Positions 1 through 5,436 of a stretch of 5,436 nucleotides of DNA are shown one piece after another. Position numbers and translations under genes: made by a program. The notes beneath the pieces were generated by a model. That model was not told where the DNA came from. It did not search any database and was given only the letters and a program-made list of their open reading frames with translations. The DNA is taken from IMG/VR virus record IMGVR_UViG_2663762648_000012, one strand, 5' to 3'. The stretch comes from a virus. Lineage: Duplodnaviria > Heunggongvirae > Uroviricota > Caudoviricetes. Numbering within the stretch: position 1 is the first letter of the stretch; each line of letters opens with the position of its first letter.

Positions 1-181
1 CTACCAGTGCCGGTGCGGCGAAAACGTTAGAAACGAATGCGGCAGCGTCACAACAATCAGCAGCCACTTCTGCATCCACCGCGACGCCTCAAAAAGCGCG
101 GCGGCCACCAGTGCCGGTGCGGCGAAAACGTCAGAAACGAATGCTGCAAGTTTCATCGTGGGTGTCGGTTATAAATTCTGA
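1..181 (+). CDS. 3' end of an upstream ORF entering the window (partial, possibly a pseudogene or chimera): Stf-type Ala/Ser-rich repeat sequence joined to a Lom/Ail-family outer-membrane-protein C-terminus
   Basis: Reading the frame that ends at TGA 179-181 gives ...[31 protein letters not shown]-stop. The last ten residues, with terminal aromatic Phe, match the C-terminal beta-strand of lambda Lom as I recall it, and the stop-to-stf spacing (65 bp) and downstream terminator are lambda-like. However nt 1-85 are identical to stf nt 838-922 and nt 87-148 match stf 820-881 with 3 mismatches, so the body is stf-repeat sequence, not a Lom barrel. Two frames are open across 1-148, so the true frame is uncertain. 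Confidence 0.35.
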   Translation, partial: YQCRCGENVRNECGSVTTISSHFCIHRDASKSAAATSAGAAKTSETNAASFIVGVGYKF

Positions 182-207: not shown

Positions 208-235
208 AGCCCGCCGGTTCAGGCGGGCTTTTTTG
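208..235 (+). terminator. Rho-independent terminator between the lom-like ORF end and stf
   Basis: Perfect GC-rich 8-bp stem (208-215 agcccgcc, pairing with 222-229 ggcgggct), 6-nt loop, followed by a T-run (tttttt, 229-234). Same position and near-identical sequence to the terminator downstream of lom in phage lambda (recalled). Confidence 0.7.
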
Positions 236-245
236 TGGGGTGAAT

Positions 246-3200
246 ATGGCAGTAAAGATTTCAGGTGTACTGAAAGACGGCACAGGAAAACCGGTACAGA
301 ACTGCACAATCCAGCTGAAAGCAAAACGTAACAGCACCACGGTGGTGGTGAACACGCTGGCCTCAGAAAATCCGGATGAAGCCGGGCGTTACAGCATGGA
401 CGTTGAGTACGGTCAGTACAGCGTTATTCTGTTGGTGGAAGGATTCCCGCCGTCACATGCCGGGACCATCACCGTGTATGAAGATTCCCGACCCGGTACG
501 CTGAATGATTTTCTCGGTGCCATGACGGAGGATGATGCCCGTCCGGAGGCACTGCGCCGTTTTGAGCTGATGGTGGAAGAGGTGGCGCGTAACGCGTCCG
601 CGGTGGCACAGAACACGGCAGCCGCGAAGAAATCAGCCAGCGATGCCAGCACATCAGCCCGTGAGGCGGCAACCCATGCGACTGATGCTGCAGATTCAGC
701 ACGTGCAGCCAGCACGTCAGCCGGACAGGCCGCTTCGTCGGCTCAGTCAGCGTCTTCCAGCGCAGGAACGGCATCAACAAAGGCCACTGAAGCCTCAAAA
801 AGTGCTGCCGCTGCAGAGTCCTCAAAAAGCGCGGCGGCTACCAGTGCCGGTGCGGCGAAAACGTTAGAAACGAATGCGGCAGCGTCACAACAATCAGCAG
901 CCACTTCTGCATCCACCGCGACCACGAAAGCGTCAGAAGCTGCCACCTCAGCCCGGGATGCGTCGGCTTCAAAAGAGGCGGCAAAATCATCAGAAACGAA
1001 CGCATCATCAAGCGCCAGTAGCGCAGCTTCCTCGGCGACGGCGGCTGCAAATTCTGCGAAGGCGGCCAAAACGTCCGAGACGAACGCCAGGTCTTCTGAA
1101 ACGGCAGCGGGACAGAGTGCCTCAGCTGCGGCAGGCTCAAAAACAGCGGCTGCGTCGTCTGCCAGCGCCGCGTCAACAAGTGCCGGGCAGGCCTCAGCCA
1201 GTGCCACCGCCGCCGGAAAATCGGCAGAAAGCGCCGCATCATCCGCTTCAACAGCCACAACGAAGGCTGGCGAAGCCACTGAACAGGCCAGCGCAGCAGC
1301 GAGGTCTGCTTCCGCAGCGAAGACATCCGAAACGAACGCGAAAGCGTCGGAAACCAGCGCAGAATCCTCAAAAACGGCTGCCGCATCGTCCGCCAGTTCG
1401 GCGGCGTCATCGGCATCATCGGCGTCTGCTTCAAAAGATGAGGCGACCAGACAGGCGTCAGCAGCGAGGGGCAGCGCCACGACGGCATCCACGAAGGCGA
1501 CAGAGGCTGCTGGTAGTGCGACGGCAGCAGCTCAGAGCAAAAGTACGGCGGAATCTGCAGCAACGCGCGCTGAGACAGCGGCAAAACGGGCAGAGGATAT
1601 TGCATCCGCCGTGGCGCTTGAGGATGCGAGCACGACGAAAAAGGGGATAGTACAGCTCAGTAGTGCGACTAACAGCACTTCCGAGTCACTGGCGGCAACA
1701 CCAAAAGCCGTTAAGGCCGCGTATGACCTGGCTAACGGGAAATACACCGCACAGGATGCAACGACAGCACAGAAAGGGATAATCCAGCTAAGCAGCGCGA
1801 CCAACAGCACGTCTGAAACGCTGGCGGCAACGCCAAAGGCAGTAAAAGCAGCCAATGACAATGCTGAGAAACGTCTGCAGAAAGATCAGAACGGTGCGGA
1901 TATCCCTGGCAAAGACACCTTTACGAAAAATATTGGTGCCTGCCGTGCCTTCGGTGGGTCAGTAAGCACAACAACAGGAAACTGGACGACTGCACAGTTT
2001 ATCGAGTGGCTGGATTCTCAGGGAGCATTTAACCATCCATACTGGATGTGCAAGGGTTCCTGGTCTTATGGCAATAATAAAATCATTACTGATACTGGCT
2101 GCGGTAATATTCATCTCGCCGGAGCTGTCATTGAAGTAATGGGGATAAAGTCAGCGATGACGATCCGCATTACCACTCCGACCACATCCAGCGGTGGCGG
2201 AACAACCAACGCCCAGTTTACCTATATTAATCACGGAACAGATTATTCACCTGGCTGGCGAAGGGACTATAACTCCAGAAATAAGCCAACGGCATCAGAG
2301 ATCGGGGCGCTACCGTCAGGTGGAACAGCAGTATCATCAGTTAATCTGGCTTCAAAAGGTCGGGTAGCCGCGCTGACAGACAATACGCAGGGGGCAGCAG
2401 GTCTTGAGTTATACGAGGTGTATAACAACGGATATCCAACAGCGTATGGAAATATCATTCACCTGAAAGGGATGACAGCCGTTGGCGAAGGTGAGTTACT
2501 CATCGGCTGGAGTGGTACAAGCGGTGCTCATGCTCCGGCATTTATTCGTTCACGACGGGATACGACCGACGCAAACTGGTCGCCGTGGGCGCAGCTTTAC
2601 ACCTCGGCTCATCCTCCTGCAGAGTTTTATCCAGTCGGTGCACCAATCCCGTGGCCATCAGATACCGTTCCGTCTGGCTATGCCCTGATGCAGGGGCAGG
2701 CTTTTGACAAATCTGCTTACCCGAAACTCGCAGCCGCTTATCCGTCAGGCGTGATCCCTGATATGCGTGGCTGGACGATTAAGGGCAAACCTGCCAGTGG
2801 TCGTGCCGTATTGTCTCAGGAACAGGATGGCATTAAATCGCACACCCACAGCGCCAGCGCATCCAGTACGGATTTGGGGACGAAAACCACATCGTCGTTT
2901 GATTACGGCACTAAATCCACGAATAACACCGGGGCGCATACGCACAGTCTGAGCGGCTCTACAAGTTCAGCTGGGGCCCACCAACATAGTCAGACTGGGC
3001 CCAGAACGAATAGCGGGAGTCAACCTACTGGAATGTTTCCGGCAGGGAGTACTCAAGTTAGCGGGACTAATCAGGTTGGTATCAGTGGCTCATTAACCAG
3101 TGGCACCTCCCAATGGGTAGGTAAATCATCTTCAGAAGGAAACCATACACACTCACTGTCCGGCACAGCAGCATCTGCGGGTGCACACGCGCATACTGTC

Positions 3201-3329
3201 GGTATTGGTGCTCATACGCACTCTGTTGCGATTGGTTCACATGGACACACCATCACCGTTAACGCTGCTGGTAACGCGGAAAACACCGTCAAAAACATCG
3301 CATTTAACTATATTGTGAGGCTCGCATAA
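246..3329 (+). CDS. stf: Side tail fibre protein (lambda Stf family), about 1027 aa; N-terminal lambda-like region, Ala/Ser-rich repeat shaft, duplicated [15 protein letters not shown] motif, a lower-GC central domain, and a His-rich HxH C-terminal tip
   Basis: Single long ORF from the six-frame track (240-3329). I place the start at ATG 246 ([26 protein letters not shown]..., matching the lambda Stf N-terminus) rather than the in-frame GTG at 240; a G-rich Shine-Dalgarno (gtgggg) lies just upstream. The C-terminus ...[31 protein letters not shown] matches the lambda Stf C-terminus. Stop TAA at 3327-3329. Confidence 0.95.
590..1640. repeat. Ala/Ser/Thr-rich low-complexity region of imperfect repeats inside stf (recurring AAKTSETNA-type units)
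   Basis: The translated sequence is almost entirely A/S/T/K/E with repeated motifs ([48 protein letters not shown]). The DNA is GC-rich with related units such as gcgaaaacgttagaaacgaatgcg, gccaaaacgtccgagacgaacgcc and gcgaagacatccgaaacgaacgcg. This also explains the long spurious antisense ORFs here. Confidence 0.6.
1641..1721 (+). repeat. Copy 1 of a duplicated 27-codon motif ([27 protein letters not shown]) within stf
   Basis: Direct repeat with copy 2 at 1773-1853, 132 bp (44 codons) apart and in frame. The two copies are identical at 25 of 27 residues but differ at many synonymous third positions. Confidence 0.8.
1773..1853 (+). repeat. Copy 2 of the duplicated 27-codon motif ([27 protein letters not shown]) within stf
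   Basis: See copy 1: same amino-acid motif, with divergent synonymous sites. Confidence 0.8.
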
Positions 3330-3910
3330 TGGCATTCAGAATGAGTGAACAAGCACGGACCATAAAAATTTATAACCTGCTGGCCGGAACTAATGAATTT
3401 ATTGGTGAAGGTGACGCATATATTCCGCCTCATACAGGTCTGCCTGCAAACAGTACCGATATTGCACCGCCAGATATTCCGGCTGGTTTCGTGGCTGTTT
3501 TCAACAGTGATGAGTCATCGTGGCATCTCGTTGAAGATCATCGGGGTAAAACGGTTTATGACGTGGCTTCCGGCGACGCGTTATTTATTTCTGAACTCGG
3601 CTCATTACCGGAAAATGTCACCTGGTTATCCCCGGAAGGGGAGTTTCAGAAGTGGAACGGCACAGCCTGGGTGAAGGATACGGAAGCAGAAAAACTGTTC
3701 CGGATCCGGGAGGCGGAAGAAACAAAAAACAGCCTGATGCAGGTAGCCAGTGAGCATATAGCGCCGCTTCAGGATGCTGTGGATCTGGAGATCGCAACGG
3801 AGAAAGAAACCTTGTTGCTGGAAGCTTGGAAAAAGTATCGGGTGTTGCTGAACCGTGTTGATACATCAACTGCACCGGATATTGAATGGCCAGTAGCACC
3901 TATAGGGTAA
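3329..3910 (+). CDS. tfa: Tail fibre assembly protein (lambda Tfa family chaperone), 193 aa
   Basis: ORF 3329-3910 ([54 protein letters not shown]...[10 protein letters not shown]) matches lambda Tfa as recalled, near-identical over the N-terminal part. Its ATG overlaps the stf stop in a TAATG arrangement (3327-3331), consistent with translational coupling, and gtgagg (3315-3320) provides a Shine-Dalgarno about 8 nt upstream. Stop TAA at 3908-3910. Confidence 0.93.
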
Positions 3911-3993
3911 ATTCGTAATGATTACCTAAATACGTTATTCTTTTGTTAAAAAAGTGATTTTGCTATAGGTAGGGAGTATGTTCTTGGATTAAG

Positions 3994-4027
3994 AATAAAA
4001 AATCGCCATGAAAGAGCTTCATGGCGA
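3994..4027 (-). terminator. Candidate rho-independent terminator oriented for leftward (minus-strand) transcription
   Basis: Perfect 10-bp inverted repeat (4003-4012 tcgccatgaa, pairing with 4018-4027 ttcatggcga) with a 5-nt loop. On the minus strand the stem is followed by TTTTTTATT (complement of 3994-4002). On the plus strand no T-run follows, so it is not a good terminator for tfa. Confidence 0.4.
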
Positions 4028-4169
4028 ATACATAAACGTACAAAATGTGATGAAAGTAGAGTGGCGTAAGCCACTATATTAAGATATAACAATAGCGAAG
4101 AAAAGTAAATAACATTTTATGGACGTTTAATTTTTAATTATAAAAACTAGAGTGCCCGATATTGTTTAT

Positions 4170-4178
4170 CTTGCTTTA
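4170..4178. repeat. Left copy of the 9-bp target-site duplication (CTTGCTTTA) generated by IS1 insertion
   Basis: The 9 bp immediately left of the IS1 left end (4170-4178) are identical to the 9 bp immediately right of the IS1 right end (4947-4955). A 9-bp duplication is the characteristic IS1 size. Confidence 0.9.
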
Positions 4179-4201
4179 GGTGATGCTGCCAACTTACTGA
4201 T
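4179..4201. repeat. IS1 left terminal inverted repeat (IRL, about 23 bp)
   Basis: ggtgatgctgccaacttactgat; the reverse complement of the right end (ggtaatgactccaacttattgat) matches at 18 of 23 positions, as expected for IS1's imperfect inverted repeats. Confidence 0.85.
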
Positions 4202-4233
4202 TTAGTGTATGATGGTGTTTTTGAGGTTCTCCA

Positions 4234-4509
4234 GTGGCTTCTGTTTCTATCAGCTGTCCCTCCTGTTCAGCTACTGACGGGGTGGTGCGTAACGGCAAAA
4301 GCACCGCCGGACATCAGCGCTATCTCTGCTCTCACTGCCGTAAAACATGGCAACTGCAGTTCACTTACACCGCTTCTCAACCCGGTACGCACCAGAAAAT
4401 CATTGATATGGCCATGAATGGCGTTGGATGCCGGGCAACTGCACGCATTATGGGCGTTGGCCTCAACACGATTTTACGTCACTTAAAAAACTCAGGCCGC
4501 AGTCGGTAA
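4234..4509 (+). CDS. insA: IS1 InsA (transposition inhibitor / DNA-binding protein), 91 aa
   Basis: ORF starting at GTG 4234 ([51 protein letters not shown]...LKNSGRSR) matches IS1 InsA as recalled, including the Cys-rich zinc-finger-like N-terminus. A Shine-Dalgarno-like tgagg sits 7 nt upstream. Confidence 0.93.
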
Positions 4510-4931
4510 CCTCGCGCATACAGCCGGGCAGTGACGTCATCGTCTGCGCGGAAATGGACGAACAGTGGGGCTATGTCGGGGCTAAATCGCGCCAGCGCTG
4601 GCTGTTTTACGCGTATGACAGTCTCCGGAAGACGGTTGTTGCGCACGTATTCGGTGAACGCACTATGGCGACGCTGGGGCGTCTTATGAGCCTGCTGTCA
4701 CCCTTTGACGTGGTGATATGGATGACGGATGGCTGGCCGCTGTATGAATCCCGCCTGAAGGGAAAGCTGCACGTAATCAGCAAGCGATATACGCAGCGAA
4801 TTGAGCGGCATAACCTGAATCTGAGGCAGCACCTGGCACGGCTGGGACGGAAGTCGCTGTCGTTCTCAAAATCGGTGGAGCTGCATGACAAAGTCATCGG
4901 GCATTATCTGAACATAAAACACTATCAATAA
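4428..4931 (+). CDS. insB: IS1 InsB reading frame (catalytic part of the InsAB' transposase produced by a -1 frameshift from insA)
   Basis: ORF in the -1 frame relative to insA, overlapping its 3' end ([53 protein letters not shown]...HYLNIKHYQ), matching IS1 InsB as recalled. The coordinates are those of the ORF as computed from the first in-frame ATG; the functional product is the InsA-B' fusion. Confidence 0.9.
4485..4491 (+). other. Programmed -1 ribosomal frameshift site (A6C slippery motif) joining insA to insB
   Basis: The heptamer a-aaa-aac lies in the insA frame (LKN codons) just upstream of the insA stop, within the insA/insB overlap. This is the documented IS1 recoding site that yields InsAB' transposase. 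Confidence 0.8.
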
Positions 4932-4946
4932 GTTGGAGTCATTACC
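4924..4946. repeat. IS1 right terminal inverted repeat (IRR, about 23 bp)
   Basis: atcaataagttggagtcattacc; this is the inverted partner of IRL at 4179-4201. Confidence 0.85.
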
Positions 4947-4955
4947 CTTGCTTTA
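4947..4955. repeat. Right copy of the 9-bp target-site duplication (CTTGCTTTA)
   Basis: Identical to 4170-4178 and immediately abutting the IS1 right end. Confidence 0.9.
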
Positions 4956-5436
4956 AAATAATGTACTCAAACCAAATTTTTGAGCTAAAAGCTCAAATAA
5001 TATAAATGCAATAATAATGTTTAATAAGACAATTAGCTTGCTTTGTATTTTCATTTCGGAATACTGTTAAGTAACTTTGATGACCCTAACAATAGATCGG
5101 AATTTTCTTAGAGTCAATGGTCACTGTTTTTGCTTGCAAAGCAAATGTTTTGGTGGTTATAAGTCGTCTTAATATAGTCACGCATGCAACTTGTTCCATG
5201 CGGAGATTAAAGATTGGAATATAACGCGAAGATGGAATTAAATTACATTTGCAATAATTAATTTATTATTACTCAATAATTACCGATATTATTATTGTAA
5301 ATTAATCATTAGAGTGCAAAAAGAAATGTAACGGCAAAATAAGAGGACGATAGCTGAGAAAAAAGCGTGCTTTCCCAATCTGGGGCAAATCACGTCTGAA
5401 TGACACCTGAAAACAGGTGGTAGCCTCAAGAAGGCT

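Follow-up and report, generated by a model that had tools for sequence, protein, structure and literature searches.

The locus carries stf, the gene of a side tail fibre, and tfa, the gene of its assembly chaperone, as a pair from a lambda-like prophage whose host appears, by similarity only, to be E. coli or Shigella. The features along it are as follows:

150..181, + strand, 3′ end of lom (last 10 codons plus stop, …SFIVGVGYKF*), by homology to lom of related prophages
208..236, + strand, GC-rich hairpin with a T-tract, resembling an intrinsic terminator, between lom and stf
246..3329, + strand, stf, intact ORF for a side tail fibre of 1027 aa
3329..3910, + strand, tfa, chaperone for tail fibre assembly, 193 aa (PF02413, E=4.6e-44)

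The window, by which we mean the whole stretch of DNA analysed, is the entire draft contig CXFX01000215.1 (5436 bp) of assembly GCA_001261315.1. All close relatives have the gene order J-lom-stf-tfa; on the contig, stf is followed directly by tfa and preceded by the final 32 nt of lom, with J and most of lom outside. The start of stf is the ATG at 246, with an in-frame GTG at 240, and the start of tfa overlaps the stf stop. Tfa is 93–94% identical to lambda Tfa (93%), to TfaR of the K-12 Rac prophage (94%) and to the Tfa of phage PhiR68_2. The 3′ neighbour differs from that in Rac, in which pinR follows tfaR; here, an IS1 with a 9-bp target duplication is found 268 bp downstream of tfa.

The presence of this IS1 and the abrupt start of the lom homology at 150, to the left of which there is stf-shaft sequence instead, can be taken as signs of a decaying prophage, in which no fibre is made and stf is a non-functional remnant that serves as a reservoir of recombination modules. 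The nearest named relative of the gene, K-12 StfR, does reside in a cryptic prophage. We consider this reading possible but doubtful: stf and tfa are both uninterrupted ORFs with counterparts that are 94–100% identical, segment by segment, in PhiR68_2 (PV340576), a phage that forms plaques, no gene is interrupted by the IS1, and the break in lom may be an artefact of assembly. Indeed, the left end of the contig is chimeric, with a copy of the shaft joined to the 3′ end of lom. The first 148 nt are shaft copies, in which nt 1–85 are 100% identical to 838–922 and nt 87–148 are 95% identical to 820–881 (87–145 are 100% identical to stf of another strain), an arrangement that points to an assembler that struggled with the repeat. 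If such a failure extended into the gene, stf would combine two paralogues from the same genome, wrongly joined by the short-read assembly across the repetitive shaft. This is very improbable, as positions 150–2948 align without a gap, at 98.1% identity, to the complete PhiR68_2 genome and positions 1773–4178 align at 97.8% to the closed chromosome of E. coli MP1; thus, every junction within the ORF is present in independently finished sequences.

The Stf protein can be divided into eight parts, all encoded on the + strand:

246..647, aa 1–134, prophage tail fibre N-terminal domain, the virion attachment end (PF08400, E=1.4e-71, full-length match)
648..1610, aa 135–455, Ala/Ser/Thr-rich shaft (75% A/S/T)
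1611..1880, aa 456–545, two Phage_fiber_2 repeats and a conserved junction (PF03406, E=6.2e-37, in two stretches)
1881..2315, aa 546–690, knob module A, of globular alpha/beta fold, a homologue of the domain that comes first in the variable part of Mu S′ and of P1 S′
2316..2630, aa 691–795, knob module B, with a linker at its end (67% identical to P1 Sv′ from residue 58 onward)
2631..2969, aa 796–908, collar and ascending half of a gp37-type needle, with His-x-His (HxH) motifs 1–3 (PF07484; PDB 2xgf, E=4.5e-82)
2970..3155, aa 909–970, hypervariable distal tip, the presumed receptor-contact head
3156..3329, aa 971–1027 and stop, descending half of the needle, with HxH motifs 5–7

Of the seven HxH motifs of the C-terminus, which align with those of T4 gp37, motif 4 (NHTHS) falls within the tip part, at its 3′ edge. 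Pfam recognises PF08400, PF03406 (twice) and PF07484 in Stf, and PF02413 in Tfa; the one match of the centre alone, to Gp34_trimer, was below threshold (18.3 bits; cut-off, 27) and was discarded. Tandem Repeats Finder reported no arrays in the shaft, whose sequence is degenerate and of low complexity rather than an exact tandem repeat. Module A is conserved, and numerous aromatic positions in it (W, Y, F) are invariant; the AF2 model predicts it as a confident globular domain, independent of the rest of the protein, with 8ju3 as its sole significant neighbour in the PDB. Module B is modelled with low confidence (pLDDT ∼55).

The preliminary description of this ORF had put it about 250 aa beyond lambda Stf. 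We find that Stf here is 253 aa longer than that of Ur-lambda (1027 versus 774 aa), and both of the peptides quoted in that description are found in the translation. The two proteins belong to the same family and occupy the same gene position, and the ends were rightly called lambda-like, with 85–90% identity at the N-terminus (90% for aa 1–134, compared to 99–100% with StfR and PhiR68_2) and 92–93% in the collar and the needle flanks, although lambda Stf has eight HxH motifs and the present protein seven. The absence of a lambda counterpart for the central part was borne out for aa 546–795 (nt 1881–2630), at the place of which lambda carries an unrelated segment of 137 aa (its aa 394–530), and the distal tip is indeed unlike that of lambda, since aa 909–970 are only 34–38% identical. 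The central insert accounts for the excess length only in part, however. Modules A and B do contribute, but so do additional shaft and a second fibre repeat, all of which lambda Stf lacks: 105 aa come from the shaft (aa 304–408, present in StfR and missing from lambda), a net 160 aa from the interval that runs from the first fibre repeat to the collar (the second Phage_fiber_2 repeat and modules A and B in exchange for lambda 394–530), and the C-terminal part is shorter by 12 aa. Two Phage_fiber_2 repeats are found here, but only one each in lambda, StfR and MP1.

That the gene is a mosaic built by modular exchange, as had been proposed, is supported by comparison with K-12 StfR (b1372, 1120 aa), in which another cassette has been placed between conserved junctions. 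From the N-terminal domain through the entire shaft to the first fibre repeat, StfR is 93–100% identical to Stf here, with 96–100% for the N-terminal half; overall, StfR, which has one fibre repeat versus two here, is 89% identical to aa 1–565, including a 44-aa gap, and 76% identical to aa 766–1027, a region in which both proteins have a gp37-type collar and a needle with seven HxH motifs. Between the same proximal and distal junctions, StfR carries a wholly different cassette of 355 aa, and its tip is 31–37% identical.

The modules themselves recur in fibres of other phages. Module A is 73% identical to its counterpart in Mu S′ (PDB 8ju3, E=5e-70; this entry is Mu S′, gp52, of Mori et al. 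2024, according to the citation in PMC11821841) and 82% identical to that in P1 Sv′, and both of these proteins have a 21-letter entry motif in common with Stf. Module B is 67% identical to a segment of P1 Sv′ that lies upstream of module A, such that the order is B..A in P1 and A..B here. The S′-type C-terminal domains of Mu and P1 and their U′ chaperone are absent; instead, the C-terminus is of the gp37 type and the chaperone of the lambda Tfa type. The collar, needle and fold of the tip are matched by sequence to the T4 gp37 tip (2xgf), and T4 gp37 likewise has seven HxH motifs and an adjacent chaperone gene, but the head of its tip is 21% identical and the remainder of the present fibre is lambdoid, unlike T4. 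A closer tip, 61% identical, is that of gp37 from Tequatrovirus slur14. The family of T4/lambda receptor-binding proteins with chaperones has >200 members (Magaziner & Salmond 2022, PMC9659904), and exchange of tail fibres between unrelated phages is well documented (PMC3945230). The present allele is a clean worked example of cassette exchange, with the same junctions and different cassettes in lambda, in StfR and here, and with knob modules that recur in the fibres of Mu, P1, P2-like and T-even phages. A map of the junctions, together with the distribution of tip alleles, may help in the design of lambda Stf chimeras and in the prediction of prophage host range; beyond annotation its importance is small, as it illustrates known mosaicism and is not new.

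An invertible segment of the Mu G, P1 C or e14 P type was considered and rejected. A search of the window for gix sites, allowing three mismatches, gave 0 hits, and the core AAACCNNGGTTT occurs in the window at chance-level frequency. A scan for inverted repeats between stf and the downstream DNA returned only AT-rich chance pairs, no cix site was seen, and the contig has no invertase gene.

The view of the gene as a mosaic with no single collinear relative is nearly refuted. The Stf of PhiR68_2 is collinear over the full length at 94.6% identity, with modules A and B 99–100% identical and its sole breakpoint at the tip, which is merely 39% identical. The prophage Stf of E. coli MP1 is also collinear, with 93.8% identity overall, a tip that is 100% identical, and segments that are 95–100% identical except for fibre repeats 1 (93%) and 2 (88%); Stf of the MP1 type has 983 aa and is without one 44-aa fibre repeat. 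StfR adds 93–100% identity over the first ∼500 aa. Similarly collinear proteins are found in the phages mEp460_ev081, PhiR42_1 and Salmonella phage SPF_0923, and full-length collinear ones in the prophages of E. coli SCU-111 and R12. Among 5426 complete E. coli genomes, the central module is present at a coverage of at least 80% in ∼800, and the stf-tfa pair, by the same coverage threshold, in ∼629; 709 records have the central module at an identity of at least 99%. The tip allele occurs in 25 genomes, and its exact form is absent from the isolated phages in the collection searched. An exact-sequence cluster look-up gave no entry for the sequence in the collection that it covers. The combination of two fibre repeats with an MP1-type tip is seen on this contig only, but it departs from common alleles just in the copy number of the repeat and the choice of a known tip. 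Thus, stf and tfa are intact but ordinary, each of their modules is shared with numerous other prophages and phages of E. coli, and the allele belongs to an established family that is common in E. coli prophages, rather than being a recent or unique chimera.

We estimate at about 90% the probability that stf and tfa here come from a lambda-like prophage, as a common, cassette-built allele with the following architecture and function. The PF08400 domain would anchor Stf to the tail tip, and would be followed in order by the long Ala/Ser-rich shaft, the two fibre repeats, the knobs A and B (of the kind that is shuffled among the fibres of Mu S′, P1 S′, P2-like H and T-even phages), the gp37-type collar, the needle with its seven HxH motifs and the hypervariable tip. 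Based on homology, Stf probably forms a trimeric side fibre, in which the HxH motifs would coordinate iron, and Tfa is predicted to chaperone the folding of the gp37-type C-terminus. The tip would contact an outer-membrane receptor reversibly, and adsorption would thereby be faster, ahead of irreversible binding mediated by J. This architecture is likely to have arisen by exchange of cassettes at the conserved junction sequences.

Members of the gp37/Stf family use OmpC or the LPS core as receptors, according to the literature. The mosaic pattern had been taken to indicate a receptor other than the OmpC of lambda, but this cannot be deduced from the divergence of the tip: even among gp37 tips specific for OmpC, sequences vary greatly, and other members of the family use the LPS core. 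For the present tip, homology to this class suggests OmpC as the most likely receptor, perhaps in one particular allelic form, with the LPS core as the alternative.

The knobs might bear a second binding site, such that modules A and B bind a ligand laterally (for instance, LPS core sugars) in series with the gp37-type tip. Module A, as a conserved and independently folding domain with invariant W, Y and F residues, would be suited to such a role, and it originates in the fibres of Mu, P1 and P2-like phages, which recognise LPS; moreover, the Stf of Gifsy-1 binds Gal II of the LPS core (PMC12312913). Yet, the module A of Mu S′, like that of P1 S′, is proximal to further C-terminal domains and hence is not the distal tip, and the varied orders and contexts of the modules in P1 and here are those expected of generic shaft knobs. 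We consider a fibre of dual specificity unlikely on this evidence, and we give slightly less credence still to the broader proposal that knobs from LPS-recognising Mu/P1/P2-type fibres (aa 546–795) add a lateral carbohydrate site to a widespread class of E. coli prophage fibres. If that were so, one fibre would read both the LPS core and, via its gp37-type tip, an outer-membrane protein.

The centre of the gene had also been described as more AT-rich than the shaft. The contrast in raw GC is real (0.49–0.52 in the centre versus 0.62 in the shaft), but it is an effect of amino acid composition: the shaft consists of 75% Ala, Ser and Thr and has a GC content of 0.81 at second codon positions, and the centre has the lower raw GC because the shaft is so rich in these residues. 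At third codon positions the contrast vanishes, with 0.505 in the shaft and 0.49 in module A, and on this analysis per codon position the GC contrast was rejected as a sign of foreign origin. Only in module B (0.43) and in the tip (0.39) is the GC content at third positions slightly lower.

Alignment of the side tail fibre with that of lambda shows how the two proteins differ in length and sequence. Stf (1027 aa) exceeds the Ur-lambda Stf (774 aa; sequence from KT232076) by 253 aa, and the length balance consists of changes of +105, +160 and -12 aa. The segments below are based on a three-way alignment and the identity of each segment to lambda.

Segments of Stf (aa) compared with lambda
1-303: 85-90% identity
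304-408: 105 residues of Ala/Ser shaft beyond lambda
409-498: 81% identity
499-545: second Phage_fiber_2 repeat and linker
546-795: without lambda counterpart, in place of lambda aa 394-530
796-908 and 971-1027: 92-93% identity
909-970, tip: 34-38% identity

The preliminary description had given the ORF, its length and two peptides as we find them, and had pointed to a fibre about 250 aa longer than lambda Stf with lambda-like ends, an unmatched centre and a divergent distal tip. These observations are confirmed, with two corrections. The extra shaft, about 40% of the excess, had been overlooked.

Compared with lambda, the protein is indeed a mosaic, but an unremarkable one, as the modules are common among E. 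coli prophages. StfR of the K-12 Rac prophage is 93-100% identical from the N-domain along the entire shaft to the end of the first fibre repeat, and its shaft contains the 105 aa missing from lambda. The proximal and distal junctions are common to both proteins, but the 355-aa cassette between them in StfR is a different one. The present Stf is collinear over its whole length with that of PhiR68_2, an isolated phage (94.6%, with differences mainly in the tip), and with Stfs from prophages of E. coli MP1, SCU-111, R12 and others (93.8%; their tip is identical, and they lack one 44-aa fibre repeat). Of 5426 complete E. coli genomes, 800 contain DNA of the central module at a coverage of at least 80%, and 709 records reach an identity of at least 99%; stf-tfa is found at a coverage of at least 80% in 629 genomes, and the tip allele in 25 genomes and in no isolated phage searched. 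Thus, Stf is not unusual; it is a new allele combination of a known, common kind. That unrelated phages, temperate as well as virulent, exchange segments of their side tail fibres is described as well documented (PMC3945230), the T4/lambda family of receptor-binding protein plus chaperone has >200 members (PMC9659904), and engineered lambda Stf chimeras make use of the same modularity.

Among phages, the closest relative of the tip allele (2970-3155) is the tip of gp37 from the virulent T-even phages slur03/slur14 (Tequatrovirus; 61% identity). Lambdoid Stfs outside the tip's own allele group reach only 31-39%, and the likeness to gp37 is another trace of T-even/lambdoid exchange.

In Pfam, aa 1-134 of Stf match PF08400 (E=1.4e-71), with a collar domain and two Phage_fiber_2 repeats farther along the protein; Tfa matches Caudo_TAP. 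A PDB sequence search with aa 519-1027 yielded two strong, non-overlapping matches, the T4 gp37 tip (2xgf; aa ~794-1027, E=4.5e-82) and S' of the Mu G(-) fibre (8ju3; best stretch aa ~539-723, E=5e-70). The C-terminal part contains seven HxH motifs, against eight in lambda, and they are in register with the seven of T4 gp37. The identity of module A (aa 546-690) is 82% to P1 Sv' and 73% to Mu S'v. Module B (aa 691-795) matches P1 Sv' at 67%, but there the matching segment precedes module A, and therefore the module orders differ. Module A also occurs in the P2-like phages PSP3, vB_YpM_46 and vB_EcoM-12474II and in SfMu, SSU5 and RCS47, with more distant relatives in Vibrio T4-like distal fibres. 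The question of an independent central domain had been raised, and an AlphaFold2 model of aa 535-800 (alignment of 32 sequences) predicts a confident independent alpha/beta domain at aa ~574-684 (pLDDT 80-90); module B is of low confidence. A similar linker motif closes each of the knob modules, also in P1 (3362-4919 of its locus) and in Mu (3568-4554; DWSEIYTTTRKPSAGDVGA), and the StfR domain preceding the collar is similar to domain 2 of Mu S'. These features suggest that the shaft knobs are one superfamily with a common C-terminal connector, which may serve as a recombination joint.

Because module A comes from fibres of invertible segments, and the relatives Rac and PhiR68_2 carry pin downstream of tfa, we searched the window for gix/cix sites and inverted repeats. 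None were found, nor is there an invertase gene on the 5436-bp contig, and we rejected an invertible segment containing stf.

The lower GC of the centre holds for raw GC (0.49-0.52, compared to 0.62 in the shaft), but not at third codon positions, where module A (0.49) is level with the shaft (0.505) and a modest decrease is confined to module B (0.43) and the tip (0.39). The shaft has a GC2 of 0.81, because 75% of its residues are Ala, Ser or Thr. Thus, the AT-richness of the centre is mostly an effect of amino-acid composition, and low GC as a sign of foreign origin was rejected.

By homology, the stf product would form a trimeric side fibre, anchored via its N-terminal domain, that contacts a surface receptor reversibly; Tfa would assist folding of the distal gp37-type needle and tip. 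OmpC is the receptor of both lambda Stf and T4 gp37, while other family members use the LPS core (Glc-II for PhiNP, Gal II for Gifsy-1 Stf). The proposal of a receptor other than OmpC is unsupported: the tips of 17 OmpC-specific T-even gp37 proteins are reported to vary extensively among alleles (2026 preprint), and thus tip divergence alone is no sign of another receptor. We favour OmpC, possibly in an allele-specific manner, as the putative receptor over the LPS core.

The window is the whole of a short draft contig (CXFX01000215.1, assembly GCA_001261315.1; 5436 bp).

Features of the window
150-181: 3' terminal 32 nt of lom
208-229: terminator-like hairpin
246-3329, plus strand: stf, 1027 aa
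3329-3910: tfa, 193 aa
3911-4178: AT-rich spacer between tfa and IS1
4179-4946: complete IS1, 768 bp, with a 9-bp target duplication (CTTGCTTTA) at 4170-4178 and 4947-4955
4234-4509: insA, within IS1
4428-4931: insB frame, within IS1
4947-5436: AT-rich DNA, 490 bp, 3' of IS1

Long ORFs in other frames or antisense of the Ala/Ser shaft (743-1492, 838-1605 and 413-825, minus strand; 874-1650, plus strand), one of them annotated as a gene in the public sequence entry (743-1480, minus strand), are spurious by-products of the GCN-rich repeat. Window 1-148 consists of two stf shaft copies (nt 1-85 100% identical to 838-922; nt 87-148 95% identical to 820-881, with nt 87-145 100% identical to stf of strain BH100N), joined in frame at ~149/150 to the final 10 codons of lom, where related prophages have the remainder of lom. 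This is probably a short-read assembly chimera with a second stf paralogue, but might instead be a real rearrangement.

IS1, which bears terminal inverted repeats, inserted 268 bp downstream of tfa and interrupts no gene. The DNA on either side (3911-4178 and 4947-5436) is very AT-rich (GC 0.29-0.37), with no convincing ORF and a minus-strand terminator-like hairpin at 4027-4003. In related prophages this is a cargo position, occupied by sitABCD (MP1, BH100N), Mn-catalase and ferritin-like genes (SCU-104) or pin (PhiR68_2, Rac). In E. coli MLI023K1 (8370-9140 of its locus), the equivalent of both AT-rich stretches is uninterrupted and directly followed by an IS1 that begins exactly at the point matching the window end (5436); beyond this IS1 lies a gene for an AraC-family regulator. 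Since that IS1 starts where the contig ends, the source genome may have two IS1 copies flanking the ~480-bp AT-rich segment.
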